From a bacterium (GTDB lineage Bacteria > Electryoneota > Electryoneia > Electryoneales > Electryoneaceae): 64,000 nt of DNA. Both the position numbers and the translations under genes were made by a program. The notes beneath the pieces are model-generated. The model worked only from the letters and a program-made list of their open reading frames with translations. It was not told the origin of the DNA and searched no databases. The stretch lies in NCBI GenBank assembly GCA_019912845.1, contig JAIOHU010000194.1:38603-102602 (forward strand), read 5' to 3'. This document shows positions 8,981 to 54,456 of the stretch, piece by piece (the first letter of the stretch is position 1; each line of letters begins with the position of its first letter).

Positions 8981-10158
8981 GTATTCGTATACTTCAGGCT
9001 TCTGGTCTCAAGCTGGGTGCACCAGTGCTGCCATCAGGACACGGCTTTAGTGAGGATATCGTACGTCAACGCGAAGCTCTCCAGAATAGCCTGCTGAGCA
9101 GAATCGTAACAATTGCACAGGATCAAAATGTTGATTTATTGATCCTTAATGGTGATTTATTCGATTTTTCATCATTTTGCCTTCCAACAATACGTTCAGT
9201 TATCTCCACCCTTAACACTATTCAGGAGACGGCAGTTGTTATTGTTCCTGGTGTGTCGGACAACTTGAGCGAACTAAGCCCTTACAAGGATATTGTGTCA
9301 ACTGCCCTCGGATTAAATTGGGGAGAACATCGTCATATCTTAAGCGATGTACGGTATTCTAACCTCAGTATCGAAACACTCCCCGACCTTATGATTTCAT
9401 TCTATTCTGATGCTGAGAGTACTATTTTTGAATCACAACCTGCCCCCGTTGAAGGAAAGATAAACATTCTGGTTTGCCCAAGTGCAGGGAATGGCAAGGT
9501 AGATTTAAATCAATATAACAAAGCGGGTTTCCAGTGGGTTATCGTTTCCGGGAGTGGATACGAAGAGGTCTTCTCAAATGAGACTGGTGACGTTCTTGCA
9601 GTAGATTCCGGTGAAGTCTTCCAGAACAGTTTTGAGCATCCTGGGAGTGGGAAAGTGGCGGTGTATGAAGTAGATGAAAATGGGATCAAGAAAGACACCC
9701 TCGATTATCACACAATCGATCCGACAAAATTGTTAACCATTCAGGTCGATCTTCCCCTCGAATATGATGATCAGACTATAGATGATATCATTAAAACGCA
9801 GATTGAAAAGCTGGACGTCACATTTGAAGATATCTTATGGATAAAATTCACAGGGAAACATATTGAAGGTCCTTTCGCTCGCTTTGAAATAAATCAATCA
9901 TTGAACTGTAATGCGTTTTTTATCGATACGAGTTCTGTTGAATTCCCTGGATTGGAAAAGATTGCTGTAATGGGGGATGTCATTCCTGAGATTGCCGAAC
10001 GTTTTCAACTCGCTCTGGAACTTAAGCTGGAAAAAGCCGGCTTAGCCGAATCTGAAAAAGTTGCCTTGCGAACCCTGGCATATCAGTATGGGATATCAGC
10101 TCTACGGGGAAAAACCCCTTATCCCTTTGGGGAAAGTAGTAAAAAGAGCACCGATTAA
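8977..10158 (+). CDS. Mre11/SbcD-like calcineurin-fold phosphoesterase with degenerate metal-binding motifs (YhaO/SbcF-like, probably inactive)
   Basis: The N-terminus is collinear with SbcD, but motif I reads ILQASGLKLG where SbcD has ILHTSDWHLG. Motif II GDLFD is retained. Motif III is GVSD instead of GNHD. Translationally coupled to the ATPase. Confidence 0.55.
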   Translation: MSIRILQASGLKLGAPVLPSGHGFSEDIVRQREALQNSLLSRIVTIAQDQNVDLLILNGDLFDFSSFCLPTIRSVISTLNTIQETAVVIVPGVSDNLSELSPYKDIVSTALGLNWGEHRHILSDVRYSNLSIETLPDLMISFYSDAESTIFESQPAPVEGKINILVCPSAGNGKVDLNQYNKAGFQWVIVSGSGYEEVFSNETGDVLAVDSGEVFQNSFEHPGSGKVAVYEVDENGIKKDTLDYHTIDPTKLLTIQVDLPLEYDDQTIDDIIKTQIEKLDVTFEDILWIKFTGKHIEGPFARFEINQSLNCNAFFIDTSSVEFPGLEKIAVMGDVIPEIAERFQLALELKLEKAGLAESEKVALRTLAYQYGISALRGKTPYPFGESSKKSTD

Positions 10159-10257: not shown

Positions 10258-11016
10258 ATGATGAGCAATGAGCCAACATCTCTTCCCGATTCAGGAAGCA
10301 CACCAACATCCAAACTCAAACAAATAAGACAGTGGTTCCTGACCGGTCTGGTCTTCCTTGGTCCTTTGGTTTTGACGATCTGGATTGTCATAAAACTGTT
10401 TCTGCTCACAGACAGTATACTTGGTAAACCAATCCGCCTTTTTCTCGCAGAAGTATTGGACCTTCAGTATTTCAAAGAGGGGACGATTTATGGAATTGGC
10501 TTTTTTGTTTTAATGGGAATCATTTTGTTAGCGGGATGGTTTGCACGTCAATACCTCGGAGTTCGGGTTGCGGGTGTCATCAAATCAACGGTGCAGAGAA
10601 TTCCGTTGGTGAACAAAGTTTACCTCGCGATCTTTCAGATATCCGAAGCGTTACTCGGTGGTCAAAAGGAAGTATTCAAGCAGGCTGTTTTGATAGAATA
10701 TCCACGTAAAGGAACTTACTGCATTGGATTTATGACACAGGATACTCGCGGTCCCATTCAAGATGCCATAAAAGAAGATGTAATCAGTATATTTTTACCC
10801 ACTACTCCAAATCCAACTTCTGGATTCCTTTTGTTTTATCCCAAGACAGATGTGGTACTGTTGCACGTGTCAGTTGCTGAAGCGCTCAAACTTATCATTT
10901 CTGCAGGTGCTGTTGTACCTGAATCACAACGTGGGAGACCTGTTACTGCCAGCCAGGCTGGAATTATTTTTGATCCGCCCGGTTCACCTCCCAATGACAA
11001 GGAGGGGAAGGCGTGA
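10258..11016 (+). CDS. DUF502 family inner-membrane protein
   Basis: Two N-terminal transmembrane helices and the conserved PTTPNPTSGFLL motif typical of DUF502/COG2928. Confidence 0.7.
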   Translation: MMSNEPTSLPDSGSTPTSKLKQIRQWFLTGLVFLGPLVLTIWIVIKLFLLTDSILGKPIRLFLAEVLDLQYFKEGTIYGIGFFVLMGIILLAGWFARQYLGVRVAGVIKSTVQRIPLVNKVYLAIFQISEALLGGQKEVFKQAVLIEYPRKGTYCIGFMTQDTRGPIQDAIKEDVISIFLPTTPNPTSGFLLFYPKTDVVLLHVSVAEALKLIISAGAVVPESQRGRPVTASQAGIIFDPPGSPPNDKEGKA

Positions 11017-12860
11017 GGAGAAGTAGGTTTAGACTACTACTCAACCTGCTTTTACTTATCTTCTCAACCGCAACAGCGGCAAATGATTCACTTTATACCC
11101 GTTTCAGCCAGGAACTGGATACACGTATTTTACAGACCAGAGGCAATTACTCAGTATCAGATTCCACCCTTCACCTCCAATCAAGTGCCTACAGTAAGAT
11201 AACCCTGCGTCAGCTTCCTGGATTTGAACCACAATGGAAACGAGACCTCGGGCTGTCGCTCACTTCCACCAGATTTCTATCCCGGAATTTTGATCTTCTT
11301 TTTGAACTTGAAGGCAGTAATTTTCAGGATCAGGAAGCTCCGGAAAGAGTGCAGAAAGGCGGTGTCTCGCTGCATCCTTATGATCTCCGTCCACTCACTG
11401 ATGGTTCACGTCTGGTGACCGGTCAGAACAGTAAAATTACACGGGGTGTCTTGCGTGGAGGAGTATCATACAACCGATCAACGACCCTGCGAAGTACAAT
11501 GCTGGTGGGAGGAGCGTACGATGAGGAGCTGAAAGGTTCAGGTTCCGGTCCATCCATGCGAGGTGATTTTAAACTCCGTCCAATTGATGACCAGAATATC
11601 CAATTCGGCGGGAACGGTTATATCAATTTGTATGACGACCGACGATATCATGATCTCACATTAGATAATTCAATCGTTCGTGATTTTGGTGATGCAACTG
11701 ACCTTTTTGAAGCAAGCTGGCGCAATCGAAGAAGCGATATTTACCTGGGGCTGGAGGGAAATATCGTCAGTCGTGTACATGATGAACTCAGCTTGAGGAA
11801 TCGTCTCAGCACTCCTTTGAGTGAGGACATGAATGGGGTTTACGACCTTGATTTTCGTCGGTCTAATGTCTCCTATCGTGGTGTTGGTCCTGGTGAAAGC
11901 AGGGAGAATGATCTGGTACATCGTCTCGCCTGGATTTATGCACCATCAATCTGGCAGACCATGCTGCAATACAATTTTGCCGTTGAGGATCGGGACTATG
12001 GCGGCACCTTGACGCTGGGAAGAAGGCAGGAGCTGGAGTTGATTACATCCCGAAATAGCGACAAAGACAGCCTGACAGTAAAACTGGGCACAGAAAAACG
12101 ACGTTATGACTCCCCCGACAGCCTTGAAACCAATGACAGAGATCGCCTGGTTCATCATGCTGAGCTGGTTGGTGGGAGATGGCTGACCCCCTGGGTCTAC
12201 ACAGCAGTTGAAATTTCAGTAATACTTGACCATCTTGTATACATTAAGCAGGAACGTTCAGCGGACAATCACTGGAATCGCGTTATCGCATTACGACCTA
12301 TTGTACAATGGTTTCCTGCTGACGGATGGAACAACACAGCTTCTTTTGAAGTTTTAGCTAACTACAGCGTATATGATTTTGAGAGCATGGATGCACGCTC
12401 CGGGATTCGTAGTCGGGTGTTTAGAAGATGGTCTGCTGCCGACACTCTGACCCTCCCCCTGGGAGGACGTGTTCAATTGTCTCTATCCGGACGATATGAT
12501 CTTGAGGAACGGGGAAGGATTATCTGGGATGATTTTGTCCAGGACCTTTCCGACAAAGCCCGGGTGGGATTCGCTGCCACTCACCTTGAATATATATTTC
12601 TCTCAAGACTTCTCTTGAAAATTGGTTACCGTTATCAGAAACGAGTGGAAGAAAGCTTTGAACAAAGCGATATTGTTTTGCAGCAAAATCAGACAGATCG
12701 AACTTATATCAAACGAGGTCCCTCGCTTCGAGTACAAACCTTGTTCAACAGATCATGGCGATTGCTGGTAGATGGAGATTTTCAAACGATTGATGACAAC
12801 CAACGTGAATCTACTGAAACCCTTAATACGGTTTACGTCACCCTTGTTTACCAGTGGTAG
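11013..12860 (+). CDS. Secreted outer-membrane beta-barrel protein, hypothetical
   Basis: Signal peptide (LLLNLLLLIFSTATAAND). Alternating beta-strand-like pattern. C-terminal aromatic residue (YQW). 4 nt overlap with the DUF502 gene. Confidence 0.5.
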   Translation: MRRSRFRLLLNLLLLIFSTATAANDSLYTRFSQELDTRILQTRGNYSVSDSTLHLQSSAYSKITLRQLPGFEPQWKRDLGLSLTSTRFLSRNFDLLFELEGSNFQDQEAPERVQKGGVSLHPYDLRPLTDGSRLVTGQNSKITRGVLRGGVSYNRSTTLRSTMLVGGAYDEELKGSGSGPSMRGDFKLRPIDDQNIQFGGNGYINLYDDRRYHDLTLDNSIVRDFGDATDLFEASWRNRRSDIYLGLEGNIVSRVHDELSLRNRLSTPLSEDMNGVYDLDFRRSNVSYRGVGPGESRENDLVHRLAWIYAPSIWQTMLQYNFAVEDRDYGGTLTLGRRQELELITSRNSDKDSLTVKLGTEKRRYDSPDSLETNDRDRLVHHAELVGGRWLTPWVYTAVEISVILDHLVYIKQERSADNHWNRVIALRPIVQWFPADGWNNTASFEVLANYSVYDFESMDARSGIRSRVFRRWSAADTLTLPLGGRVQLSLSGRYDLEERGRIIWDDFVQDLSDKARVGFAATHLEYIFLSRLLLKIGYRYQKRVEESFEQSDIVLQQNQTDRTYIKRGPSLRVQTLFNRSWRLLVDGDFQTIDDNQRESTETLNTVYVTLVYQW

Positions 12861-14410: not shown

Positions 14411-14641
14411 TTACAGAAAACTGTTCAAAACATCTGTGCTCATATCAGCTTGGTGAAGTATGCTTTTCAGGGTTCCTTTTTTCAAGTCTTTATTGTGATA
14501 TGGAACGGTAACTGTAAGTTCTGGTCGTTCTGGATGAACCAGAGAGATGTGACTGCCTTGCTGATAGTCAACCTCAAACCCAGCTTTTCTAAGGGCACGA
14601 AGTAATTGTCTTGGTGTGATAACGGGAAGTTTTGGACTCAT
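14411..14641 (-). CDS. hicA: HicA toxin (YcfA-like mRNA interferase)
   Basis: 76 aa with PRQLLRALRKAGFEV...QGSHISLVHP, the hallmark of HicA/YcfA. Confidence 0.8.
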   Translation of the reverse strand: MSPKLPVITPRQLLRALRKAGFEVDYQQGSHISLVHPERPELTVTVPYHNKDLKKGTLKSILHQADMSTDVLNSFL

Positions 14642-14644
14642 CTC

Positions 14645-14881
14645 CTACACCGCCACTGCCAACTTATCGCGTAGTGGCATAGATTCTTGTATATCTTCAG
14701 GTATGGGTAATCCCCGTTTTATTAGTGATGCAATATGGCAACGGATTGCATCTTTTGCCATCTCTTTTGCTTCATCAAGGGTATCCCCTTCGGTGACCAG
14801 TCCCGGCAACGCAGGAATCGTGACAATATATCCGCCTTCCTCTGCCAGTTCAAAGATCGCCGTATATTCCTTTTCTACCAT
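14645..14881 (-). CDS. hicB: HicB-type antitoxin (UPF0150 fold, no DNA-binding extension)
   Basis: 78 aa, YTAIFE...EEGGYIVTIPALPGLVTEGDTLDEAKEMAKDAI pattern of HicB. Lies 3 nt upstream of hicA on the same strand. Confidence 0.7.
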   Translation of the reverse strand: MVEKEYTAIFELAEEGGYIVTIPALPGLVTEGDTLDEAKEMAKDAIRCHIASLIKRGLPIPEDIQESMPLRDKLAVAV

Positions 14882-15460: not shown

Positions 15461-15833
15461 ATTTATTTCCCGCAATTCATTGAATTTGTCACAATAGTAG
15501 TGGTATATATTAATGTAGAAACCAACTCGTGTGAAGTGTTCGTTCTGGTACGGGTAACTATTAGGGGGAAATCTTCTTTGTCTTCTATGAAAGGGGCTGA
15601 CACGCCCCTTTCGATCCCCAAAATGATCCAATCGGGTATTTTTGCTAAGATATTTAACGGGAATAAGCGCGATACCTGTAGCAAGCTACAGGTCATCCGT
15701 CGCGAATATTTAATTCGTTGAATGATATAGGATTTATATAAACAAGCCATTGACTTTATTGTGGATCAAGAGTAAACTATTTACAAGATTGCAAAGGATT
15801 ATTGGAATCAGTTATTATTTGCGGGGGTATTTT

Positions 15834-18800
15834 ATGAATCGGATCAAAAGAATATTCACAGTGATCTGCATCCTATTATCATTTGGCAGTAGTATGGCGC
15901 AGGATAGTCTGAACATTAGCATGCTGGGTAGTTTATACAACAATTGGGATCTATCTGCTGATCTTTTTATCGTCGATACTTTGGTGTTTATCGCAACAAC
16001 TGGTAGTGGTTTAAGGATTTTAGACATCCGTAATCCTGGTTCTCTTAATGAGCTTGGTTTTTGTTATACGCCGAGCAATGCCTACGATGTCGCAGTTGCT
16101 GGTGAATATGCATATATCGCAGATGGAAGCGAAGGGCTTTGTGTTGTTAACGTGAGTGATCTGGAAAATCCAGTAGTCGTTGGTTCATTCGATGAACCCG
16201 AGTGGGTTGAAGGTGTGGCAGTTCATGGAGGGTATGCTTACCTGACAGATTTTTATCAAGGAATGTGGATAGTTGATATCAGTGATCCGCAGAATCCTTT
16301 TCAGGTTAGCTATATAATTTCCCCCGATCATTCGCAGGATATCGCAGTTGTTGAAGATTACGCCTATGTCGCCATCTGGGATGAGGGATTATGGATAGTT
16401 GATATCAGTGATCCGGAAAACCCTGAAGAAGTTGCAACCCTCAGAACCCGTGATTCAGCTCGGGATGTTACTGTGTTTGACGGTTTTGCTTACATAGCTG
16501 ATAACGAAGCGGGTCTCTTTATCGCTGATGTAACTGATCCCGAAAATCCCATCGAAGTTGGCTCCTATGATACTCATGGTCGTACCAGAGGTGTAGCTGT
16601 CACAGAGAACTACTCATTTATCGCAGACAGTCGGGGAATGCGAGTGATTGATATCACCCAGTTGGAAAACCCTCTGGAGGTCGGATTTTACGATTCAATG
16701 TCTCGTACCACCAGCCTTGTCATCTCAGATTGGATCGCTTTTATTTCTGATGAGGTTGGTGGCCTTCGAGTTGTTAATGTACACGATCCTGAACAACCCA
16801 TTGAAATAGGCAGTTATGACACACCAGCATGGGCACGAGAGGTAGTGGTACAGGGAGAATATGCTTTTATCGCGCATGATGAAGGTGGGCTTCGAGTAGT
16901 TGATATAAGGAATGGAGAGAATCTGTTCGAAGCAGCATTCCTCACTTTTCGTCGACCAGCAATGAATATTGATTTGCAGGGGGATTACGTATATGTGGGT
17001 ACTTCTGATTGGGAGCGGGAAGAAGGCGGTCTTAGAATTGTCGATATCAGCAACCCAGTTGCACCTGATGAAACTGCTTTTTTCGATCTAGAAGAGGTGG
17101 TCAGTGATCTTGCAGTTTCAGAAGGGATCGCATTTGTCGCTACAAATGAAACTGATCTTCATATCTTGGATGTATCTGATCCCGAAAATCCATCAGAAAT
17201 CAGCCAACTTTACCTGCAGGGAAATGCTAGCAGTGTTGCAGTTGAAGGAAATTTTGCTTACGTCGTAGCTGCTGGTCTCAGGGTGGTTGATGTAGGCGAC
17301 ATTCAAAATCCTGTCGAAGTAGGGTTTTACAATCCGGTTGGCAACAATATTAGACATGTTGCTGTTTCGGGAGATATAGCTTACATTGCTGAGAGAGGTC
17401 TCAAAGTATTAGATGTCAGTAATCCAGAAAACCTCGTCGAAATTGGGGCGTTCAACGCACCAGGATCAATCCGGAATATTACTGTTGTAGACAGTTATGT
17501 GTTTGTCGCTTATTCCTGGAAACTTAGCACATCCGGTGGATGTCTACGTGTGATTGATGTCAGTGACCCAACACACCCAGAACAAACGGGATTTTACAAA
17601 ACTCCAGGTATTGCAAACAATGTTTGTGCCGTAAACCAGTTCGCTTATGTGGCGGATTCCTACCATTTTGAAGTTTATGACTGTTCCTATGCAATTGATT
17701 GGCCGGATACTGCCAGTGTATCTGGAATCGTAATTGATGAAGAAACCAGTGAGGTTATCTCCGGAGCTGTAGTGTCTTTCGATGAACATCAAACTTCCAC
17801 AAATGAAAATGGTGAATACAACTTCACCCTCCTTTCTCCTGATAATTATTCTGTAGATGCTTATGCTCTGGACTACGAACCATTTCATGCTGGAAGAGTA
17901 CAGCTTGAATCTGGGGAGAACACTTATAATTTTTCTATGCGAAAGAATGAAAGTTTAAATATCGAAATCCTCTCGATGATCGAGTCTCACTACTACAACG
18001 AAGCTGTGGCAATCGAAGGCGATTTTGCATATGTGGCGGATCAGGATTCAGGATTACGCGTTATTGATGTTTCTGATCCGCAATTCCCAAGAGAAATTGG
18101 TTTTTTTCCCGCAAATGACGCATTTCGCGGTGTCGTTGTGTCAAATGGTTACGCTTATCTTGCTGACCACGGAGCAGGATTTCGTATTGCTGATGTCAGT
18201 GATCCAGAAATTCCTGTTGCAGCAGGATCTCTTGCCACGCCAAACCGAGCAAATAAAGTCGTCGTAGAGGGAGATTATGCATACATAGCAAATACCTATG
18301 ACGGTTTGCGTATTGTCAATGTGAGTGATGCGGCAAATCCTGTGGAAATAGGTGTCTGCAATACACCTGACTGTGCGCTTGATGTAGTAGTCGGGGAAGG
18401 TTTCGCGTATATCGCGGATTATAATGAAGGTTTACGGGTGATCGATATTCATGATCCAGCAATTCCGGTTGAAATCGGCTATTTTACAACAGATGATGAA
18501 TGCGCAATTTGCGTTACTGTTGATGGGAATTATGCCTATGTTGGATATGGTATGGATGGGCTTCGCGTCCTTGATATTAGAAATCCGGCTAACCCTGTAG
18601 AAATTAGCCATTATCAAACACCGGGTCGTGTCTACTGCATCAAAGTTGTTGAAAACTTTGCTTTTATTGCTGATTTTTACGATGGATTAAGAGTGCTCGA
18701 TATCAGCGATCCCACCAATATTGCAGAAACAGGTTTTTATAATACGCCAGGAACAGCCCAATGGGTCGAAATTGAAGGTAACCTTGCGTATGTCGCTGAT

Positions 18801-19151
18801 CGAAATCACCTCGAAATTTTCGACTGTTCAAACGCTATGATTGAGAACATTGCACCAAACATTGATGAAATAAGTTTACCACATGATTTTTTTGTCAGCA
18901 ATGCTTACCCAAATCCTTTTAACAGTACAGTAACTGTTACTGTTGGATTGTCCGAAAACGGAATGATTACGTTACGTCTTTTTAATATCCTTGGACAGGT
19001 AAAGTTTGAATCAACACAGAGATTCAACGCTGGATATCATCGTTTGAGTCTTGACGATGAACAGACTTTTGACGTTGTGAGTGGGATCTATTTCCTGCAG
19101 GTGCAGGTTGGTGGAGTGAACGAAGTGCAGAAGGTGATTTTGTTGAGGTAG
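15834..19151 (+). CDS. T9SS cargo protein: two LVIVD-repeat beta-propellers separated by a CarboxypepD_reg-like domain, T9SS C-terminal sorting domain
   Basis: Signal peptide, then ~20 repeats of the LVIVD motif (GLRVIDISDPENPVEVG). A CarbopepD_reg-like segment (SGIVIDEETSEVISGAVVSF...ENGEYNF). C-terminal domain YPNPFNSTVTVTV...IYFLQVQVGG...KVILLR. The first ATG after the long leader is 15834. Confidence 0.8.
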   Translation: MNRIKRIFTVICILLSFGSSMAQDSLNISMLGSLYNNWDLSADLFIVDTLVFIATTGSGLRILDIRNPGSLNELGFCYTPSNAYDVAVAGEYAYIADGSEGLCVVNVSDLENPVVVGSFDEPEWVEGVAVHGGYAYLTDFYQGMWIVDISDPQNPFQVSYIISPDHSQDIAVVEDYAYVAIWDEGLWIVDISDPENPEEVATLRTRDSARDVTVFDGFAYIADNEAGLFIADVTDPENPIEVGSYDTHGRTRGVAVTENYSFIADSRGMRVIDITQLENPLEVGFYDSMSRTTSLVISDWIAFISDEVGGLRVVNVHDPEQPIEIGSYDTPAWAREVVVQGEYAFIAHDEGGLRVVDIRNGENLFEAAFLTFRRPAMNIDLQGDYVYVGTSDWEREEGGLRIVDISNPVAPDETAFFDLEEVVSDLAVSEGIAFVATNETDLHILDVSDPENPSEISQLYLQGNASSVAVEGNFAYVVAAGLRVVDVGDIQNPVEVGFYNPVGNNIRHVAVSGDIAYIAERGLKVLDVSNPENLVEIGAFNAPGSIRNITVVDSYVFVAYSWKLSTSGGCLRVIDVSDPTHPEQTGFYKTPGIANNVCAVNQFAYVADSYHFEVYDCSYAIDWPDTASVSGIVIDEETSEVISGAVVSFDEHQTSTNENGEYNFTLLSPDNYSVDAYALDYEPFHAGRVQLESGENTYNFSMRKNESLNIEILSMIESHYYNEAVAIEGDFAYVADQDSGLRVIDVSDPQFPREIGFFPANDAFRGVVVSNGYAYLADHGAGFRIADVSDPEIPVAAGSLATPNRANKVVVEGDYAYIANTYDGLRIVNVSDAANPVEIGVCNTPDCALDVVVGEGFAYIADYNEGLRVIDIHDPAIPVEIGYFTTDDECAICVTVDGNYAYVGYGMDGLRVLDIRNPANPVEISHYQTPGRVYCIKVVENFAFIADFYDGLRVLDISDPTNIAETGFYNTPGTAQWVEIEGNLAYVADRNHLEIFDCSNAMIENIAPNIDEISLPHDFFVSNAYPNPFNSTVTVTVGLSENGMITLRLFNILGQVKFESTQRFNAGYHRLSLDDEQTFDVVSGIYFLQVQVGGVNEVQKVILLR

Positions 19152-19383
19152 GGTAAAAGCTGGCTCGGGGCTTTGGGCTTCTGGCTTTTAGAAGACTTTA
19201 ACACCCTTCTCAACATCAACTACATCAGTGCTGGCGCACTGAGTCTTGTCTGGTTCCCCGCCTACGCGGGGATGACGAGGCGGACAAGGCTTTGGGCTAT
19301 TGGCTTCGGTTCCGCACGCAACTTCTTCAGATGTCGCAGAACGAAGAGTAACTGGGAGGCACGATGTAAACGGAAAAAATTGC

Positions 19384-19600
19384 TTCCTGGATCCCGGCCC
19401 AACTCATCACCGGGATGACGCGGGGTGTGATGCCACACTGGAATAGATCGGCTTAGAATTTCAAGGGAATTATTAGACTTGGGATAAATCCCAAGCCAGA
19501 ATAAATGCCAAACTGGAGTGTGGCGCTCCAGGGCGGGGTGGTGTAGTCTTCTGCTCCCCGGGTTCCGCTGCGCTACACCACAGGGCTACACCAATCTCCC
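19384..19600. repeat. Intergenic repeat cluster: module A stem-loop, module B hairpin, module C, inverted module D
   Basis: Module A (19384-19440) recurs at 30061, 40090 and 48871. Modules B and C (19449-19531) recur at 48759-48946. 19552-19600 is the reverse complement of module D. Confidence 0.6.
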
Positions 19601-19777
19601 CGAGGCATAAAGTATGTAAACTTGAAATTATAGTCCATTTACTTGCTGTTACATTGATATTGTTCTAAATTGTACTCTAATGTGTCAGCGAAATACCTGG
19701 GGGTTGATTAAGGCTGTCAGTAATACTCCCTGCCCCGTTTTCGTTCATTTGGATACCTTACGGAATTGGAGTCCATC

Positions 19778-21919
19778 ATGATCTATCCTACTCGAAAAAT
19801 CCTGTTTACCATCTTCTGCCTCACTTCCCTTCTTATAAGTTCAACACTGCTTTTCGCACAGGAAGGCATAGAGCTGTTGTCAACCATTGAGAATGAATCG
19901 TGGGAACGTGTCTGGGATGTTACCTACGAGGACAATTTGCTGTATGTATGTGCCGCATCGGAAGGTATGTTTATTTATAATGTTGAGGATCTGGAAAACC
20001 CCGAATTATTGGGTGAGTTCACCACCGGAGCGACAATGAGGCAGGTGACAATCAAATCTGAATATGCCTATATCGCTGCCGCCAGTCAGGGGATGTATGT
20101 TGTGGATATCAGCACACCCACCAATCCCGTGTTGCGTTCTCAACTTGAAATCGACGAATTCACCTGGACAATTGATGTTCATGGCAACATGGCGTATGCC
20201 ACCGAGTTCGGTGATATCTATGCGATTGATATTTCCGACCCGGACGACCCGGAAATTCTATCTGTCATTGATGCACGTTGCTGTCAGAGGAAGGCACTGA
20301 TCAGGGATGGAATCTCTTACTCGCCATCCGAAAATTGGGGTTTCCAAACCATTGATGTTTCCGACATTTTCAATCCTGTTCAACTGGACATGGAACGTGA
20401 GTACAGTGGGACAGCGTATGATGTAGCGTTGCAGGGGGACTATGCTTATGTCGCATATGCACGACAAGGCATTCTCGTGTACGACATTTCCGATCCGTCA
20501 GATATCTTTGTCGCCGGACGAACCTGGGAATATAACAACATTTTCGGGATAGATGTTCAGGATGGGTATGCTTACTTTACCAATAGTTCAAATGGTATAT
20601 CTGTGCTGGATATCAGCAATCCTGTTGATCCTGCACCAGTCGGATCACATGATGTTGAGGGTGTAATATACGGACTCGCCATAAATCCACCCTATGCATT
20701 CATACCTGCAGGAAACACTGTATCAATCTTTGATTGTTCGGAAGCGATCGGTTATGATGACCAGGAAGAGGTAAACATCCCTCTTGCAACAAATCGTTAC
20801 GAACTGGTTTCCATGCCTCGTCTCCCCTTAGACCTCTTCGCAATCAACTTGTTCGAAGATATCCCCCATCTTGCTATCGTACAAAACGAGCAGGGGCAGG
20901 TTCATATACCTGACCTGATCGACGCCGATTGGATGGTGAATCCTACCGAAGCCTACATGATTTATACAAGCGAAGAGAGCGAATGGGTCTATACAGGTAC
21001 AACCATCCGTGCCGACCATGAGTTCAACCTCCAACCTGATACCTGGAATTGGATTGGCTATCCCTTCACTGACGAAATGCTGGTAGAACAAGCGATGGAA
21101 CCGATTTATGATGAGCTGGAAATTATTCTCAATGATGACGGTGAGATTTTCATTCCTGATCCGGATTTTAACATCAACACCATGGGGAATATGACACCCG
21201 GCGAAGGTTATCGTGTCTTTGTAAATGAGGAAGTCGACCTGGAGTATCCAGAGGAACTCGAACGTGCCGGAGCTTTTACAACGGAAAAATGGAATATCCC
21301 TGAAATTGAAGATACTCCTCATGCGACAGGTTTGCCCTGGGTTGTCCTGGTGACGCTGGACGAAAGTATGAAACAGCAGGCAGCGGTTATCGAACTCTAT
21401 GACGGCAACGTTTTGGTCGGCAGAGCTGCTGTGCTCGAAGACAAACCGGTCACGCCGGTAACAGCATGGCAGGCGATCCCGGAGCATGATATTCCAGGCT
21501 TTTTCCCCGGAAATCCGATCAGTGTGAAAGTGTTGGATGAAAGCGGTGAAGTCGTTGGTGAATCAGGGAGTGCAAACGTCAGCTCATCAGCTTTTGGTAA
21601 AGGTCCTTATGCTGAAATCACGGTATCTGCAATCGAGAATGAATCTGAACTCCCACTCGAACTTTCCATGGGCAAAGCCTATCCGAACCCGTTTAATCCG
21701 TCGATCACTGTTCCATTTACCCTGCCGGAAAAAATGGAAGTCAGTTTGAGTTTATACAATATCGTTGGGCAGCTGGTAGCGGAATTGAACCAGGGAGTGC
21801 TGGATCGAGGTCACCATGAATTGGTCTTCGAAGCTGTGAACCAGACTTCCGGTGTCTATTTCCTCGTCTTGAAAGCTGGCGAACATCACGCCATGCAGAA
21901 GGTGATTTTGTTGAAGTAG
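19778..21919 (+). CDS. T9SS cargo protein: N-terminal LVIVD beta-propeller, non-propeller C-terminal half, T9SS C-terminal domain
   Basis: Signal peptide plus LVIVD repeats, then a domain shared with the C-terminal half of the 51153-54188 protein. C-terminal domain AYPNPFNPSITVPFTLPEKM...VYFLVLKAGEHHAMQKVILLK. ATG at 19778; the listed ORF uses an upstream TTG at 19766. Confidence 0.8.
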   Translation: MIYPTRKILFTIFCLTSLLISSTLLFAQEGIELLSTIENESWERVWDVTYEDNLLYVCAASEGMFIYNVEDLENPELLGEFTTGATMRQVTIKSEYAYIAAASQGMYVVDISTPTNPVLRSQLEIDEFTWTIDVHGNMAYATEFGDIYAIDISDPDDPEILSVIDARCCQRKALIRDGISYSPSENWGFQTIDVSDIFNPVQLDMEREYSGTAYDVALQGDYAYVAYARQGILVYDISDPSDIFVAGRTWEYNNIFGIDVQDGYAYFTNSSNGISVLDISNPVDPAPVGSHDVEGVIYGLAINPPYAFIPAGNTVSIFDCSEAIGYDDQEEVNIPLATNRYELVSMPRLPLDLFAINLFEDIPHLAIVQNEQGQVHIPDLIDADWMVNPTEAYMIYTSEESEWVYTGTTIRADHEFNLQPDTWNWIGYPFTDEMLVEQAMEPIYDELEIILNDDGEIFIPDPDFNINTMGNMTPGEGYRVFVNEEVDLEYPEELERAGAFTTEKWNIPEIEDTPHATGLPWVVLVTLDESMKQQAAVIELYDGNVLVGRAAVLEDKPVTPVTAWQAIPEHDIPGFFPGNPISVKVLDESGEVVGESGSANVSSSAFGKGPYAEITVSAIENESELPLELSMGKAYPNPFNPSITVPFTLPEKMEVSLSLYNIVGQLVAELNQGVLDRGHHELVFEAVNQTSGVYFLVLKAGEHHAMQKVILLK

Positions 21920-22031
21920 ATCTGGCTATGAGACAAGTTTATGTGTTTTCATGAAGAAATTGCTTATATGTTAGTTAAGCATTTCTGAATGTAATTTTAA
22001 CACAAAATGTAAAGATAAGGCAGAAGGTATA

Positions 22032-24200
22032 ATGAAAAGAATGATGGTTACTTTGACAATTATAGTGTGCCTAAGTTCGATAGGTTCCGCTTATTCTCAG
22101 GATAGTCTTAATGTCAACATGGTTAAGCAATATTACAGCAACTGGGATTATGCCAGTGATATTGCCGTATCAGGAGAATTTGCATTTGTAACGACATTGA
22201 GAACTGGTTTGAGTGTTCTGGACATTCGCGATCGACACAATCCCGTTGAGGTTGCAAGATGCAGAACAGTTGGTAGGGCTGGAAACATCACTATCCAAGG
22301 TGAACTCGCCTATATTGGCGATTCCCGAGATGGTTGGTTATCAGTTATTGATATAAGTTCACCACAAAATCCACTAGAAATTGGACAATTCCAGTTTGAC
22401 GAACCTATCACAGATGTTGTCATTGAGGGAGACTTTGCTTTTCTCGCCTGTCGCCAAAGTGGTTTGATAGTTGTGGATGTAAGTAATCCAACTGATCCCA
22501 CAATTGTTGATATATACGATACTCCTGGAAATGTCTCTAAAATAGCAATAGCGGGAAATTGTGCGTTTGTGACAGATTCAGATAGCGTACGAATAATCAG
22601 TATTTCTGATGTGATGAATATGGAAGAGTTAGCTGCATTTCCTGCGATACCTTCAGATGTTCATGTCGACAATGGTATCGCCTATGTTTCAGATTGGTCA
22701 GGAGGAATGCATATTATTGATGTAAGCGAACCTGCAAACCCTGTGGAAATGAGTTACTTTATTACTCCACCAAACGCTACGAGCGTTAGTGTTTCAGGAA
22801 ACCTGGTCTATCTTACGCTTGACAATACCGATGTCGATCTCGTGATCATTGATGTTACTGACCCATATAATGCTCTTCAACTTGAAGGTCTTGTAACGAC
22901 AAATAGAACTGAAAATGTTGCTATTGTTGATAATTTTTCCTTTCTAGCTGAAGGGTATGCAGGAATTCAAGTATTTGATGTCACCGAACCTACAGATCCT
23001 TTGCCGGTTGGAGCATATGACCCGTGGGGAAGACTTACAAGAATTGAAAAGAGAGATAGCTTGTTGTTCATTGGAGGGGTAAAAGATACAGACAATACTG
23101 GTGTTTTACGTATCTTGAACATTGGAGATCCAGATCATCCCGTTGAGTTGGGGGAATGCAACCTACCGGGCAGTCCCAAGGAAATTGTGATATCTAATAG
23201 TTACCTATATATAGCTAATGACCATAGCGGACTGTCAGTTATAAACATAGAAGATCTATTAAATCCACAACTAATGGCTTCACTAGGTACAGCACATCGT
23301 GCATATGATGTTTCAATTTTTGAGGGCTGTGCCTACGTTGCAGATTTTGTCGGAGGTTTACGTATTATTGATATTTTAGATCCCTCAAACCCTTCTGAAG
23401 TCACATCCATTGAAACAATCCAAAGCACAAATGCTGTTGAAGTCTTGGACAATATGGCTTACCTAACAGACGAGGATATAGGACTGATTGTTTTTGATAT
23501 AAACGATCCCGAGCATCCGTTGGAAATGGACCGCTATACAAGTCCCCAAAGTGCGACTGATGTAGCAATTTCAAATGGATTTGCGTATGTCGCAAGCGGT
23601 AATCACCTATATATAGTGGACATTAGTGATCCGGAAAATCTTTCTGAAATCTCTATATTTGATAATTCTGGTGAGATAGATGGCGTAACAATTTCAAATG
23701 GATTTGCGTATTTGACGGAAAAAGATGAAGGATATCTTTATATTCTTGATGTACAGGACCCAGCAAATCCAGTTGAGGCTGGCTATTATAACACACCTGG
23801 GGAAGCTTGGGATTTAGTAGTTTCGGATCAAATTGTATTTGTAGCTGACAATAATTACCTGGATGTATTAGACTGTACAGAGGCAATTGAATGGACTGGA
23901 GTTTACGATCAATGGTCATCGCTTCCCTTGGAGGCTATTGTTCAACAAGCATATCCTAATCCATCAAATTCAACAATTACGATACCGTTTGACACTTTCA
24001 ATCCAACACAATTGGAAATCGCAATTTTTAATGTTCTGGGATTACAGGTATTCTCGGCTATTCAAGGATATGGTACCGGACATCATCGATTTGTACTCGA
24101 TTGCAATCAACCTGGACTAAATTTAGTAAGTGGTACATACTTTCTGAAATTCAAAATGAAGGAAAGTACCTTTACCAGGAAGATTACCTTGCTGAAATAG
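22032..24200 (+). CDS. T9SS cargo protein with LVIVD beta-propeller repeats
   Basis: Signal peptide plus QDSLNVNM start, repeated IIDVSxPxNPVE units, C-terminal sorting domain ending TFTRKITLLK. Ribosome-binding site AAGG upstream. Confidence 0.8.
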   Translation: MKRMMVTLTIIVCLSSIGSAYSQDSLNVNMVKQYYSNWDYASDIAVSGEFAFVTTLRTGLSVLDIRDRHNPVEVARCRTVGRAGNITIQGELAYIGDSRDGWLSVIDISSPQNPLEIGQFQFDEPITDVVIEGDFAFLACRQSGLIVVDVSNPTDPTIVDIYDTPGNVSKIAIAGNCAFVTDSDSVRIISISDVMNMEELAAFPAIPSDVHVDNGIAYVSDWSGGMHIIDVSEPANPVEMSYFITPPNATSVSVSGNLVYLTLDNTDVDLVIIDVTDPYNALQLEGLVTTNRTENVAIVDNFSFLAEGYAGIQVFDVTEPTDPLPVGAYDPWGRLTRIEKRDSLLFIGGVKDTDNTGVLRILNIGDPDHPVELGECNLPGSPKEIVISNSYLYIANDHSGLSVINIEDLLNPQLMASLGTAHRAYDVSIFEGCAYVADFVGGLRIIDILDPSNPSEVTSIETIQSTNAVEVLDNMAYLTDEDIGLIVFDINDPEHPLEMDRYTSPQSATDVAISNGFAYVASGNHLYIVDISDPENLSEISIFDNSGEIDGVTISNGFAYLTEKDEGYLYILDVQDPANPVEAGYYNTPGEAWDLVVSDQIVFVADNNYLDVLDCTEAIEWTGVYDQWSSLPLEAIVQQAYPNPSNSTITIPFDTFNPTQLEIAIFNVLGLQVFSAIQGYGTGHHRFVLDCNQPGLNLVSGTYFLKFKMKESTFTRKITLLK

Positions 24201-24500
24201 AACAATAGCACGGAATCTTGTATTCCGAGAAAAAGGTTCCCTGAGTCGACGCAAGCGATCAAATTGAAATTGTATTGGTGAATTAATGTTTCGCTACTAG
24301 AGAGACGATTCCGACAAGTGGACAACCTGAACCACTTCAATCGGCCATCAGAGGTGAAGACAATCCAAATTGATGTGAGAATCTTAAGCTGTTGAGATGT
24401 ATGATTAGGTTCAATCGGAATCGCTCTGAATCTTTTCCCTGGGATGCAAGTTCCCTGGCTACGCTTACTAGAACGAACAGCTACATGATAGTAATAGTTT

Positions 24501-27500
24501 ATGAGGAGATCAGTTTTGAAACTATTCACTGCGTTGTTAATGTCAATAATTCTTTTCTGCACAACAGCCTCTGTTTTTGGTCAAGACAGCTTGAACATAA
24601 ACATTATCTCCAGGCTGGATACTCCTGGATGGGCAAGAAGTATCGCAGTATCAAATGGACATGCCTTCGTTGCAGACAGTGCGAATGGAGTTCGAATTAT
24701 TAATGTTGAAGATAGGACTAACCCATGGCACGTAGGAGTATTTGACCCACTTTCTGAAGCATTTGAAGTGAATGTCTCCGAGGACATTCTCTATGTAACA
24801 ACTCGTTCCGGTGTTCACATACTGAGTTTGGATAATCCCGCAACCCCGGAAGAGATCAGTGTATACGAAAACGGACAATTTGGAACTATTCAAGTTCAAG
24901 ATGGGATTGCCTACCTGTCATATGGTCGGAACCTTAGAATTGTTGATGTGACGGATCCTGAAAATCCAACATTCATTTCTGATTGTGGGGTTGTAGCTTC
25001 TCCCCTTGGAATCGACATTTCAGAGGAATATGCCTATTTGGCGTGCAACAATGATGGTGGACTTAGGATTATTGATATCTCCGACCTCTTTAACCCCGTT
25101 GCGATGGGGTTCTATGATACCATTGGATGGGCGAATGATGTTGCGGTTGATGGTGATATCGCTTGTGTTGCTGATGGACCACGCGGTTTGCATTTGATCG
25201 ACATAAGCAATCCTGATTCTCCCCAATTAATCAGTAGCGTTGATTTGCCTGGCTATTCACGACGCGTTCAGATTATTCAAAATCACGCAATTGTAGCAGC
25301 GAGTGGCGGCGGGTTGCGAATCGTAGATTTCAGTGACCCTGAAGACCCCATGATAACAGGGTTCTACAGAACACCTGGCGGTGCAGAAAGTATATATGCA
25401 AAATCAATACGCTTATGTAGCTGATAATATTTATTTCGATATTTTCGATTGTTCCGATGCACTGCTTGATCCTGGACCTGCAAATGTTTTCGGTGTTGTC
25501 ACAGATAGCATTAATGCGCACCCAATACCAAATGCGACTGTTAGATTTAATCTAAACGAAACAGTTACTGATGAGAATGGAGAATATTCCCTGGTTGATT
25601 TGGAGTTTGGTGAATATAATATCAGGGTATCAGCAAATGGTTATCAAGATTTCATCCAGAACGGAGTATATATTTGGCCGGGCGATAATTTTTTAGACTT
25701 TGATCTACGTTATTCAGATAGTCTCAACATTAATATGTTGTGCCTATTGGATACTCCAGACAATTCACATGCTGTTGCTTTCAGTGATAGTTATGCCTTT
25801 ATCGCATCAGAAGAAGCTGGATTGGTTGTTGTCGATGTAAGTGACCCTGAAAATGCTACTGTCATAAGTACATTCGATACTCCAGATTGGGCAAATGGAA
25901 TTGATGTGGTAGATGGATATGCCTATGTCGCAGATGCAGAATCAGGTTTAAGAATAATAGATGTAACTGACCCTGAAAATCCTGCTGAGATTGGAGTTTA
26001 TAACACACCCGGTTATTGCCACGATGTAATCGTTATAGACAATATTGCTTATGTAGCTGATCGATTTGGTGGGCTCAGAGTTCTTGATGTAAGTGATCCT
26101 GCGCATCCGGTTCAAATTGGTGTTTACAACACAAATGACATGGCACATAGTATTGATTATTCTGATGGTTACGTGTATATCGGAAGCATTTATAGCAGAA
26201 TTCATATTATCAATGTTTCAGATCCCGCAAATCCCCAACAAGTAAGTTCAATTAATATGAACCGAACTGATGATATCACTGTCAGCCAAGGTTTCCTGTA
26301 TGTAGCTGCCAGAAGTGATGGTTTAGTAATATTTGATGTCACGGATCCTGCAAATCCGAGAGAGATGGGAAATTATGATGCGAGCGGTTCAGTCTCTGGT
26401 GTCGAGTATGTTGATGGATACGCATTCTTGACTGCTTCCTGGGCTGGTGGATTCCATGTTGTTAACGTATTCAATCCTGAAAATCCCTATCAGACAGGAT
26501 ATTATGATACCCCGGCACAAGCATTTGATGTGGTCGTTGAGGATAACCTTGCTTATGTAGCTGATTATCATAGTTTCCAAATTTATGATTGCACAGAAGC
26601 TACACCAGAAATATTACCAGCTTCGGTTTCAGGCAGAGTTAGTGATAGCGGAACTGATCAAGGGATTGTGCATGCTGAAGTAAGATTTGGAAATCGATCT
26701 GCATACACTGACCTTGATGGTAATTATCAACTCCACGATTTGGGGTCAGTGAACTATGATGTGAGAATTACTGCAACTGGATATCGTGGTTTTACACAGG
26801 AAAATTTCCAGGTATTGGAGGGTGAAAACGAGTTTAATGCAGTACTGATCTTGGATGACAGTCTAAATGTGAATCGAATTTCAATTTTAGAATCTCCACA
26901 AGTAGCACGAAATGTATTTGGAACAAGTGAACATCTTTTTATTGCAGATAGTATTGATGGACTCAGGATTTTCGATATATCGGATCCTGTGAATCCAAAT
27001 CAAATTGGAGTTACAGAAACTATCACAGGCGCCTGGGATGTTGAATTCATCAATATTACAACATTTGCATTATCCAGTTCCGATGGAATTCATATAATTG
27101 ATCCACAAATTAGGATGTCACCTGTTGAAGTTGGATTTATTGAAACTGCTGGAGACGCCTACGGTATCGAATCAATGGATCATTTCCTTTTAGTCGCCTC
27201 GGGTACAGATGGTTTGCTGATTATTGATGTGGCAGACAGGAATAACCCTGTGGTGGTGGGGTCGATAGAGACTACTGGTTTTGCCTGGGATGTTTCGGTT
27301 CAAGGAAATACCGCTCTGATTGCGGACGGTGCTGATGGAGGTGTCCGTCTGATTAATATTGAAAACCCTGCAGATCCTGTTGAAATAGGGTTTATTGTTA
27401 CTGAGGGATCGGCTCTTGGAATTGTAGTAGATGATGATCTTGCTTATGTCGCCGATGGAATAGCTGGATTGAAGATTATCGATATGAGTAACGTAGAAAT

Positions 27501-28053
27501 GCCAGCAATTATTGCGTCCTATGCTGTACCAGGCATATCAACCAATGTGTTTCTTGAAAATGGAGTTCTCTACCTTGCATCACAGTTTGCCGGTTTACGA
27601 ATTATTGATATAGAGGATCCTGAAAATCTGCATGAGAGCGGATACTACACGACTGAAGGGAATGCATTGGCAGTAGCGGCTCGAGAAGAATTCGCCTATG
27701 TCGCTGCGGGTGAATTTCTCGAAATTTACGATTGTTCCAGCGCGCTTGGCTGGAATCCTGTGCAAAACCGAACTGATCTTGTCCCACCTTCTACAATCGC
27801 TCTGGAGCCAGCCTATCCGAACCCGTTTAATCCGTCGATCACTGTGCCATTTACCCTGCCGGAAAAGATGGATGTACGTTTGAGACTGTACAATATCATC
27901 GGGCAGCAGGTGGCTGAATTAAATCAGGGAGTGCTGGATCGAGGTCACCATGAATTGGTCTTCGAAGCTGTGAACCAGACTTCCGGTGTTTATTTCATCG
28001 TGTTGGAAGCGGGTGAACATCAAGCCATGCAGAAGGTGATACTGCTAAAATAG
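24501..28053 (+). pseudogene. T9SS cargo LVIVD-propeller gene (~1180 aa if joined) interrupted by a +1 frameshift in an A4 run at 25400-25403
   Basis: ORF 24501-25424 (signal peptide plus first propeller) and ORF 25381-28053 (CarbopepD_reg, propeller, CarbopepD_reg, propeller, C-terminal domain) join seamlessly if one A is removed. The joined protein has the paralog pattern TPGxAxx...AYVADxxxxxIFDCSDA. The joined architecture matches the 15834-19151 paralog. Confidence 0.6.
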
Positions 28054-28121
28054 ATCAATATGCCGGATTAAAATAACTCTGTTGGGAATCAAATACTGCC
28101 GATTAATTCAGCGTAAAAATT

Positions 28122-29190: not shown

Positions 29191-30003
29191 ATGTCTCTCA
29201 ACAAGATCAGAATAAAGGTAACCCTGCTGTGTGCAATCCTGCTTGGTACTCTTATTTCAATTGGATGCAAAGAGGCAGAACCCAAATTCACCCTGCTGGT
29301 CAGCGGTAACGCGCATGGTCTGGTTGACCCATGTGATTGCGAGCTTGGTCATTTGGGAGGGCTGGCTAAACGTGCGACACTCTTCCAAAAACTTGACAAG
29401 GGAAATTCTGCAATTCGTATCGAAACCGGTGGGATCGTGGATGAACTCACTGATTCAACGCGGCTTCCCTCAATCAATGAAGCACTCGATTTACTAGAAT
29501 ATGATTTCATGCTGCCATCCCAGCAGGACAGCCTGCTTTTTCATTCATCCCTGCCTTCTTCACCACTTCCTTGGACTTGGATAAAAAATCCGAATCCTCA
29601 AATGACAAAAGTTAACAACACCACAGTTTCGATTTACGGATTCCGGGATGATTGGATCACTGAAGAATCCATATCCAGGCTGCAAAATAGTCCACCAACA
29701 TCTGATATAATAATTTGGCTTACCTATCTTGAAAAAATTGATCCAGGGGAACTTCTTGTTCAGTTGAAAAACATCACGCCTGACCTTATCCTTGAAGGAA
29801 ACATTGAGTACACCAATCCTGCACCTGACACAATTCAAGGAATACCAGTCCTGCGTTGCGGTGCGGAGGGGATGGATGTTCTTGAGGTTGATGTTTTCAG
29901 AGTTGGTGAAGGCTTCCAGTTTAAACCAACCTGGCACCAGGTGGATGATAAGGTAGAAGAAGCAGCAGATGTAAAACAGGTGCTTATGACGCAGAAGAAA
30001 TAA
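29191..30003 (+). CDS. Hypothetical lipoprotein
   Basis: Signal peptide with lipobox (LISIGC). 12 nt downstream of the LOG-like gene. No recognisable domain. Confidence 0.45.
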   Translation: MSLNKIRIKVTLLCAILLGTLISIGCKEAEPKFTLLVSGNAHGLVDPCDCELGHLGGLAKRATLFQKLDKGNSAIRIETGGIVDELTDSTRLPSINEALDLLEYDFMLPSQQDSLLFHSSLPSSPLPWTWIKNPNPQMTKVNNTTVSIYGFRDDWITEESISRLQNSPPTSDIIIWLTYLEKIDPGELLVQLKNITPDLILEGNIEYTNPAPDTIQGIPVLRCGAEGMDVLEVDVFRVGEGFQFKPTWHQVDDKVEEAADVKQVLMTQKK

Positions 30004-37300: not shown

Positions 37301-38827
37301 ATGAAAAGAATTTTCTGGCATAGTCGCTGGTTCATGCTGGTAAACCTGGTGCTTCTGCTCATGAACTCCACCATTTTTTCACAAATCCATATTTCTGGCG
37401 AGATCAGCGGCGTTCTCGAAGATACACTCTATATCATAGATGACGACATCACTTTGCGTGGATTTGATACTTTGACAATATCAGGCGGTGCAGAGTTGGA
37501 GTTCATGCCGGACACTTACTTTGCGATTTATGGACGTTTGATCACGGATGGTGCGGAAGGTGATACGATTCGGTTTAGGTCTCATCTGGCAGATTCTACC
37601 TGGCGAGGCATTAACTTCAGGACAGGTGGTAGAGGTGATTTTAACTACTGTCTGATCAGGGATGCCCATATTGGAATACAGGGATGGATGGGTGGAGAAA
37701 TCCGAAACTGTGTGTTTATTTATAATGATGGCGCCATGGGAAGCGCTGCCGACAGGATTTATGATAGTATAGTTCGACACAATAGGCAGGGAATTAATGC
37801 AAATGGAACTGAAGAATTTCCTGATTCTGTTATAAATTGTGATGCTTCCTACAATAGAGACTATGGCATTAATGCTAGCGGGGCAATAATTAAGAACTGT
37901 ATCATATCTTATAATGGATCCGATCCAGAAGTGGATGGCGTTGGGATATCAGCGTCTAGCCATACGGTAGTTGATTCCTGTATGATCTTCCAAAACAGGT
38001 GTTCTCGAGGTGGTGTTTATCTTTCAAATGGATCTACAATTAAAAATTCAATGATATTTGCTAACCAGGGTGAAATTGGTGGAGGAATTACCACTCATCT
38101 TAGCGGTTGTTTAGTTGATAAATGTACGATTATTGGAAACAACGTTATTTCACACCTTTCTATTGGATCCGGTGTGTGGATGGAAGGGTACAATGATGTT
38201 TTAACAAACAGTATTGTAGCATATAACACCGGATATCTTACTAATGGAGTAGATCATCATTATGTTAGAGAAGAAAATATTGTGACCTATAATCTGATTT
38301 ATGGTAATGACAACAGGCAATACCGCCAGATGGATACCACCGAATATTATTTATACCGCAACCTCAATGAGACCCCATGCGACTCATTGTTCAATATATA
38401 CCTCGACCCCAGACTGTTAGACATCGAAAATAATATATTTGAACTAACTGCAGATTCACCCTGTATTGATGCAGGTGATCCTGACCACCTTTATGATCCG
38501 GATAATACCATTACTGATATAGGCTATCATTATTATCCCCACGAAAGTATTGTTAAAAAATCGAATCTTGAGAATCAAATCGTGAGCATTTTTGATGTCT
38601 ATCCAAATCCATTCAATCAGAATCTGAAGGTGAACATTTTAACGGATGATCTTCTACCGGATGCTGAGCTGAAAATTTATGATCTGCTCGGAAGACAATT
38701 GATATCAGCTAAAATTAACAATCCCAGGCAAAGTTATAACTTCGAAGGTTTTTGCTCTGGCACTTATTTTATTAGAGTAACACAGGGGAACTACCAGGAG
38801 AGTAGAACTGTCTATCATATCAAATAA
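37301..38827 (+). CDS. Secreted right-handed beta-helix (pectin-lyase-fold) protein with T9SS C-terminal sorting domain
   Basis: Signal peptide. Repeated parallel beta-helix rungs (NCDASYNRDYGINASGAIIKNCIISYNGS...). C-terminal domain VYPNPFNQNLKVNI...GTYFIRVTQGN...TVYHIK. Confidence 0.7.
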   Translation: MKRIFWHSRWFMLVNLVLLLMNSTIFSQIHISGEISGVLEDTLYIIDDDITLRGFDTLTISGGAELEFMPDTYFAIYGRLITDGAEGDTIRFRSHLADSTWRGINFRTGGRGDFNYCLIRDAHIGIQGWMGGEIRNCVFIYNDGAMGSAADRIYDSIVRHNRQGINANGTEEFPDSVINCDASYNRDYGINASGAIIKNCIISYNGSDPEVDGVGISASSHTVVDSCMIFQNRCSRGGVYLSNGSTIKNSMIFANQGEIGGGITTHLSGCLVDKCTIIGNNVISHLSIGSGVWMEGYNDVLTNSIVAYNTGYLTNGVDHHYVREENIVTYNLIYGNDNRQYRQMDTTEYYLYRNLNETPCDSLFNIYLDPRLLDIENNIFELTADSPCIDAGDPDHLYDPDNTITDIGYHYYPHESIVKKSNLENQIVSIFDVYPNPFNQNLKVNILTDDLLPDAELKIYDLLGRQLISAKINNPRQSYNFEGFCSGTYFIRVTQGNYQESRTVYHIK

Positions 38828-54188: not shown

Positions 54189-54399
54189 GTCCGAATCCTC
54201 TAAGTAGCAAGAGTTGGTCAAGGTGCGACTTACATCAGATTACATTATTAGCAATCAGTTTGCAAATGAATTCATGTCACTTTCTAAAAATCTCGCAAGA
54301 AGTCTCTCAGGGAAAGGACGCCAGGTGAGGAAAATACTGGATTTCCCCTTGAGAAAATCAAAAAAATAACGATACCTTTAGCGTTTGGAATTTGTGGAC

Positions 54400-54432: not shown

Positions 54433-54456
54433 GTGGTTATTGAGGAATTAGAGATA

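Follow-up and report, generated by a model that had tools for sequence, protein, structure and literature searches.

The Split Locus

The stretch of DNA analysed here (the window) comprises 64,000 nucleotides (nt) of contig JAIOHU010000194.1, assembly GCA_019912845.1, and the subject here is a pair of overlapping open reading frames (ORFs) on its forward strand at 24501-28053, which are the two halves of a single split gene for a predicted secreted protein of the LVIVD family. The upstream frame, ORF1, encodes 307 amino acids (aa) with the C-terminal end ...FYRTPGGAESIYAKSIRLCS*, while the downstream frame, ORF2, encodes 890 aa from a GTG or 885 aa from the ATG at 25396, with the N-terminus VQKVYMQNQYAYVADNIYFDIFDCSDA. 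ORF2 lies in the +1 frame relative to ORF1 and overlaps it by 44 nt. In GenBank the two are the coding sequences (CDS) MBZ0265349.1 (a 302 aa 'hypothetical protein', K8I28_11855) and MBZ0265350.1, neither of which is marked as a pseudogene. Two stop codons close the ORF2 frame just upstream, at about 25351, and two close the ORF1 frame at 25422-25427, so that a switch from one frame to the other must fall between these limits. Deletion of a single A yields a stop-free open frame of 1183 aa, the joined protein being of about 1184 aa. Its domains follow one another in the order signal peptide, three 7-bladed LVIVD propellers with two CarboxypepD_reg domains between them, and the C-terminal sorting domain of the type IX secretion system (T9SS), as listed below.

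24501-25424, + strand: ORF1, the 5′ fragment, comprising the signal peptide and, from propeller 1, blades 1-6 plus strand A of the seventh, after which come the out-of-frame tail (K)SIRLCS and the stop at 25422-25424
24501-24581, + strand: predicted Sec signal peptide MRRSVLKLFTALLMSIILFCTTASVFG, with QDSLN directly after it, an arrangement that the paralogues share (read from sequence)
24582-25461, + strand: propeller 1, a 7-bladed LVIVD beta-propeller that is complete only with the frames joined (alignment, AlphaFold2, Foldseek)
25381-28053, + strand: ORF2, the 3′ fragment, lacking a signal peptide and opening in blade 7 with its strands B and C
25486-25686, + strand: CarboxypepD_reg domain 1 (Pfam PF13620, residues 31-97 of the 885 aa product)
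25714-26601, + strand: propeller 2 (SDSLNINM...FQIYDCTEA)
26623-26853, + strand: CarboxypepD_reg domain 2 (second PF13620 stretch; limits approximate and read from sequence)
26854-27747, + strand: propeller 3 (DDSLNVN...LEIYDCSSA)
27814-28041, + strand: T9SS type-A sorting domain, Por_Secre_tail (PF18962, 36.7 bits against a cut-off of 27)

Two Open Reading Frames, One Gene

The propeller modules of this family all open with DSLN(I/V)N and end in the motif LR.iDvsDP....tGfY.TPG.A..v....AYVAD....eiyDCs.A. Six further copies of the module-end motif are found in the split gene and its tandem paralogues, that is, in all six of the other modules, and a seventh is recreated by the joined sequence, its left half being the end of ORF1 and its right half the start of ORF2. 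A peptide across the junction of the joined frames would read, for example, ...TPGGAESIYA(K)NQYAYVADNIYFDIFDCSDALLDPGPANVFGVVTDSINAHPIPNATVR; other junction-spanning forms would be TPGGAESIYAKNQYAYVADNIYFDIFDCSDALLDPGPANVFGVVTDSINAHPIPNATVR, a variant without the K and a variant with YM in place of YAK. Once repaired, the first module (298 aa) can be aligned along its whole length with four paralogous modules of about 300 aa, at 26-35% identity, and the blade-repeat spacings in the DNA that span the junction are of the form 3n+1 (508 and 760 nt). By paralogous modules, motif ends and profile scan alike, the ORFs align collinearly, and without overlap, to one homologous unit. A preliminary description of this DNA had proposed one cargo gene of about 1180 aa with a net +1 offset, and module alignment, motif copies and profile scans all uphold that proposal; in particular, the paralogue alignment, which could have shown the ORFs to be independent, instead runs through the junction as a single module.

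The distribution of domains points in the same direction. Against a Pfam cut-off of 20.2 bits, LVIVD (PF08309) scores 323 bits on the joined protein, in 9 scoring stretches, 130 on ORF1 and 219 on ORF2. Taken separately, ORF1 holds LVIVD matches only, and ORF2 holds LVIVD, both CarboxypepD_reg domains and the sorting domain (36-36.7 bits). ORF1 alone has the signal peptide and ORF2 alone the sorting domain, and it is only after repair that both stand on the same polypeptide, as in a T9SS cargo. LVIVD-repeat beta-propellers have been described in surface proteins (Pfam PF08309; Adindla et al. 2004, PMC2447325). Like the intact neighbouring genes with PF18962, the repaired protein has about 21 blades, a signal peptide and Por_Secre_tail; the difference is that here signal peptide and sorting domain are carried by separate polypeptides. 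No T9SS machinery genes were found in the 64 kb window.

Structure prediction places the break within a domain. The AlphaFold2 model of the repaired first module has a predicted local distance difference test score (pLDDT) of 92.7 and a predicted template modelling score (pTM) of 0.91, with 28 strands in 7 blades, and its best Foldseek matches are 7-bladed WD40-type propellers (template modelling score about 0.8). In this model the junction falls between strands 268-274 and 277-282 of the closing blade. In addition, the N-terminal strand NIISRLD-TPG stands in the repeat register of the fourth strand of a blade (compare AEIGVYN-TPG). From the repeat pattern and the strand list of the model, we infer a closing blade of four strands, to which ORF1 contributes twice, once from its end and once with its N-terminal strand, and the start of ORF2 contributes the other two. 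The break thus falls inside the closing blade of propeller 1, within a folded domain of which neither half is a complete unit, and it is only for the joined sequence that there is a confident 7-blade model.

Position and Nature of the Lesion

The break was located with a profile built from the six other module ends, which served to score all possible repairs across the overlap, whether by removal of one base or by addition of two. The repaired junction reaches 69-80 bits, as compared with 46-56 bits when the frame is switched at the edges of the overlap, and the scores form a plateau at about 25376-25407, with lower values to its left and right. On the plateau itself, the range is 69-72 bits for 1-nt deletions and 74-80 bits for 2-nt additions. 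The preliminary description had placed the lesion in the run gcAAAAt, which does sit at 25400-25403, and had noted that removal of one A restores the motif. This it does (69.5 bits), but the repair is not unique, as others across 25376-25407 lie within a few bits of it. The candidate repairs, as scored with a single-blade profile independent of the module-end profile, are as follows.

25376-25407, + strand: lesion interval, a net +1 nt or -2 nt relative to the intact gene (profile plateau)
25391-25397, + strand: addition of AT in tATATATg, giving ...AESIYMQNQYAYVAD at the canonical blade length (50.3 bits)
25387-25389, + strand: addition of AA at the AAA run (loss from A5 to A3), giving ...GGAEKVYMQNQYAYVAD (48.8 bits)
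25400-25403, + strand: addition of AA at the A4 run (loss from A6 to A4; 47.7 bits)
25400-25403, + strand: removal of one A, or A3 repair (gain from A3 to A4), the site first proposed (43.0 bits)

The three 2-nt repairs listed rank above the A3 repair in the single-blade profile as they do in the module-end profile, and in both a 2-nt addition beats a 1-nt removal by 5-8 bits. The higher score is due to the spacing from TPG to AYVAD, which in all six module ends is one residue longer than in the A3 repair. In a wider sample of 61 paralogue blade matches, the spacing is modal in 49 and one residue shorter in only 2. In view of these scores and of the blade that it would leave one residue short, an extra A in the A4 run is one candidate among several and has no better support than the others. 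To judge from the paralogue motif, the frame break can be placed only within about 30 nt, with no power to say which tract changed. The motif mildly favours the loss of two bases over the gain of one; single-base insertions or deletions (indels) are the commoner mutation in general, and both options are kept open here.

The Paralogue Array and Its Relatives

The split gene is the last of a tandem array of four LVIVD/sorting-domain genes (15750-28053), the other members of which are intact.

15750/15834-19151, 19766-21919 and 22032-24200 (15750-24200 overall), + strand: three intact upstream tandem paralogues with LVIVD and the sorting domain

Further genes of this kind lie at 46538-48745 and 51153-54221. 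The layout of signal peptide followed by QDSLN is common to the proteins that start at 22032, 15834 and 46538. For the first paralogue, the TTG at 15750 that is listed as its start probably lies upstream of the true one, as the signal peptide MNRIKRIFTVICILLSFGSSMAQDSLN starts at the ATG at 15834. The genes at 19766-21919 and 51153-54221 (- strand) also share a similar region of about 250 aa between propeller and sorting domain (for example ...YELVSMPRLPLDLF... and ...FYELVTSPVRPAFL...), which has no Pfam match and may be an uncharacterised domain.

Two segments of the array are much closer to each other than the remainder. Specifically, the sorting-domain DNA at 21676-21922 and that at 27810-28056 are 89% identical over 247 nt, the rest of the genes being far more diverged, which suggests a recent duplication or gene conversion confined to the sorting domain. 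Over the last 240 nt of ORF2, compared with the paralogue ending at 21919, synonymous divergence (dS) is 0.47 and nonsynonymous divergence (dN) is 0.044, a dN/dS of 0.10. This low ratio indicates that, since the duplication or conversion, the segment has mostly been under constraint. Together with the 890 codons over which ORF2 stays open, it also points to purifying selection until recently.

Searches for an intact allele gave negative results. In a protein set of 5.8 billion clusters, the full-length repaired protein returned ORF2 at 100% and then only matches of at most 36% identity. A junction-spanning query of 242 aa returned ORF1 only and missed ORF2 as well, so that the negatives of this query are soft. 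Among the GTDB species genomes, the only match was one of 45% to the sorting domain, in a metagenome-assembled genome (MAG) of Neomarinimicrobiota. No match was found in JGI metagenomes, either by a DNA pattern with flexible tracts or by protein, and a literature search on the run, the locus tag and the accession found nothing.

The UvrD protein of the window has relatives at 51-60% identity, including one of Candidatus Electryonea clarkiae, by which the organism may be placed loosely among uncultured bacteria of the FCB group. In the contigs of three relatives (55-56% UvrD identity), the block SLOG-YceG-UvrD-TPR-QRPTase is kept and the four-gene array is absent from the equivalent position. 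As no LVIVD gene precedes the block in any of the three, the array is lineage-specific and without a positional orthologue. Inside that block the window has extra genes, namely a 270 aa ORF at 29191-30003 and a sorting-domain protein at 37301-38827. With four tandem copies, more at 46538 and 51153, and no array in these relatives, the LVIVD family looks expendable.

Origin of the Break

The locus is probably a recent frameshift null allele, either a young pseudogene or an inactivated variant that dominates the population sampled, of one copy of the family. A small indel would have hit the codons of the last blade of the first propeller in this T9SS cargo gene, as one extra base or, slightly better supported, as two lost bases in a short A or TA tract within 25376-25407. 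Translation from the true start stops 7-8 codons past the lesion, at 25422-25424. The resulting 307 aa product would consist of a signal peptide and an unclosed propeller of six and a bit blades and, having no sorting domain, would presumably not be handled by the T9SS. The 885-890 aa product, even if translated, would stay cytoplasmic, with its start in the middle of a blade and no signal peptide. With one export signal on each half, the allele would be null, and the lesion would be young because the 3.5 kb of the gene hold no other stop or frameshift. Pseudogenisation of this kind was one of four options raised in the preliminary description, the others being slipped-strand switching, programmed +1 frameshifting and a homopolymer error, and it is the one that fits best the split in mid-domain, the divided export signals and the reproducibility of the sequence. 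As in known split genes and young pseudogenes, adjacent ORFs on the same strand and in different frames are collinear with one full-length homologue, the premature stop follows a small indel by a few codons, and no further lesions are present; what differs is that this locus is unflagged in the public record and comes from a single MAG without relatives.

Several points weigh against a null allele. The signs of relaxed constraint are absent, there being no further stop or frameshift in the 3.5 kb and a dN/dS of 0.10 between the sorting-domain segment and its paralogue; on sequence grounds, this combination would be compatible only with a very recent inactivation. An intact downstream frame is equally expected from a sequencing error or from recoding. 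No orthologue or second strain was found (best non-self match 36%). Finally, the two assemblies in which the break is seen, compared in the following paragraph, probably share reads, and there is room for a systematic read error or for a minority intact allele.

The main rival, although itself improbable, is an error of sequencing or consensus, by which the gene would be intact and the MAG sequence would show too many or too few bases in one of the short A or TA tracts. The source invites this suspicion, since it is a MAG labelled only '[bacterium]' in GenBank, on a contig of 104 kb; the 3.5 kb are otherwise open with well-formed domains, and the candidate sites are short low-complexity tracts. 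However, Logan contig SRR15661998_29029 (2226 nt), from an independent k-mer assembly of run SRR15661998, is identical at 2226/2226 positions to 24097-26322 of the window, junction included, and encodes the exact ORF1 protein. This separate assembly argues against an assembler artefact. The tracts in question are also short, and short-read sequencing, if that is what produced this run, is not prone to errors in stretches of 3-4 bases. Nor is there any other obvious split gene among the approximately 35 genes of the window, in which domain matches are full-length. A mis-assembly through repeats was considered as well and set aside, as no near-identical repeat flanks the junction, the closest copies there being at most 74% identical. 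The ends of the Logan contig have no repeat elsewhere in the window. In other words, the option of a homopolymer error is weakened by the identical assembly and by the unsplit neighbours, yet it keeps some probability.

Far less probable is phase variation, in which slipped-strand mispairing in an A or TA tract would toggle a surface protein within the population. The gene does encode a predicted secreted or surface protein of a multi-copy family and, as in the contingency loci of Neisseria, Haemophilus, Campylobacter and Bacteroides, it is broken at short repeat tracts. These tracts, the only simple ones in the lesion interval, are A4, A3 and (TA)3.5, that is, 3-4 nt or 3.5 dinucleotide units, and they fall far under the lengths associated with high switching. 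Known contingency tracts are much longer, with roughly at least 7 units for homopolymers and several units for dinucleotides. Runs of A4 are moreover commonplace (273 in the window, 15 in the split gene), and no homopolymer in the gene is longer than T6, of which there is one. As softer evidence, the Logan contig crosses the site and the protein search found no in-frame form. Slipped-strand switching is disfavoured on these grounds.

The chance that programmed +1 ribosomal frameshifting or another form of recoding yields the full-length 1184 aa protein is smaller again. All that speaks for it is the intact downstream frame and the well-formed propeller that results from a +1 shift inside 25376-25407. 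A direct reading of the codons in this interval reveals none suited to +1 re-pairing, the nearest case being AAA-U to AAU. No rare or stop codon stands at a suitable shift position, and the 0-frame codons that follow are ordinary in the genome (UCA 14.5, AUA 13.5 and CGC 5.7 per 1000). No Shine-Dalgarno-like stimulator is found next to the site, the sequence GGCGGUG lying about 17 nt upstream of the AAA as against about 3 nt in prfB. Downstream of the site, the predicted RNA fold is no stronger than that of shuffled sequence (z = +1.2), and neither Rfam matches nor tRNAs were found in the window. The +1 frame of prfB, the gene for RF2, is thus shared by this locus, whereas its CUU-U-type codon, its in-frame stop at the shift site and its Shine-Dalgarno-like element 3 nt upstream are not. 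A prfB-like shift at the ORF1 stop would score 46-51 bits and leave the motif unrestored, because that stop lies beyond AYVAD and the conserved residues are already lost before it in the 0 frame. Furthermore, a run of A4 is too short for transcriptional slippage, and a +1 shift gives the less favoured blade that is one residue short. The option of programmed frameshifting is thereby disfavoured too. On sequence criteria, none of programmed frameshifting, transcriptional slippage and a contingency locus would fit, and even together the regulated readings retain only a slim chance.

The remaining reading, in which ORF1 and ORF2 are independent and separately functional genes, as their presentation in GenBank as consecutive ordinary CDS without a pseudogene flag implies, is rejected as very improbable, because the two meet in mid-blade, with strand A on one side, strand B on the other and the fourth strand supplied by the N-terminus of ORF1, ORF2 has a sorting domain and no signal peptide and ORF1 the reverse, the two overlap by 44 nt in different frames, the ATG at 25396 has no clear ribosome-binding site upstream, and the collinear module alignment contradicts it.

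Other Genes of the Window

Just upstream of the LVIVD array, in an otherwise ORF-poor gap of 1.5 kb, lies a pair at 14411-14881 (- strand) consisting of a HicA toxin (76 aa, PF07927, 76 bits) and a HicB-like antitoxin (78 aa, PF15919). At 54433-56567 a release-factor gene with PCRF and RF-1 domains in an unbroken frame is followed by prmC, and by this gene order it is probably prfA; a naturally frameshifted prfB is not present in the window, which hence offers no internal control for recoding. A flagellin gene (Flagellin_N and Flagellin_C) is found at 3117-3953, in a genome rich in genes for cargo with the T9SS sorting domain. Other ORFs on the same strand overlap at 11013-12860/12772-14229 (by 89 nt) and at 40793-41620/41556-42347 (by 65 nt); as their domains are complete, these overlaps look like upstream starts that have been over-extended and not like frameshifts. 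At E ≤ 1e-5, Pfam yields nothing for four sizeable ORFs of 393-699 aa, namely 8977-10158, 11013-12860, 48957-51056 (- strand) and 57179-58825.

Implications

For the public record, the consequence would be to replace MBZ0265349.1 and MBZ0265350.1 by one pseudogene feature or, if the reads disagree with the assembly, by one intact gene. As a matter of method, the case illustrates that a paralogue motif can favour a loss of two nucleotides over the 'extra A' that is obvious by eye. It is very doubtful that the break is decoded or toggled, by low-level +1 recoding or by indel switching at the short A and TA tracts. If it were, the full-length cargo with its three propellers would be made in a subpopulation or under some conditions, and an uncultured lineage of the FCB group would have an on/off surface protein that depends on neither a canonical slippery site nor a long repeat. 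As a recent null allele, the split copy is consistent with a rapid birth and death of genes in a lineage-specific array of secreted propeller proteins.

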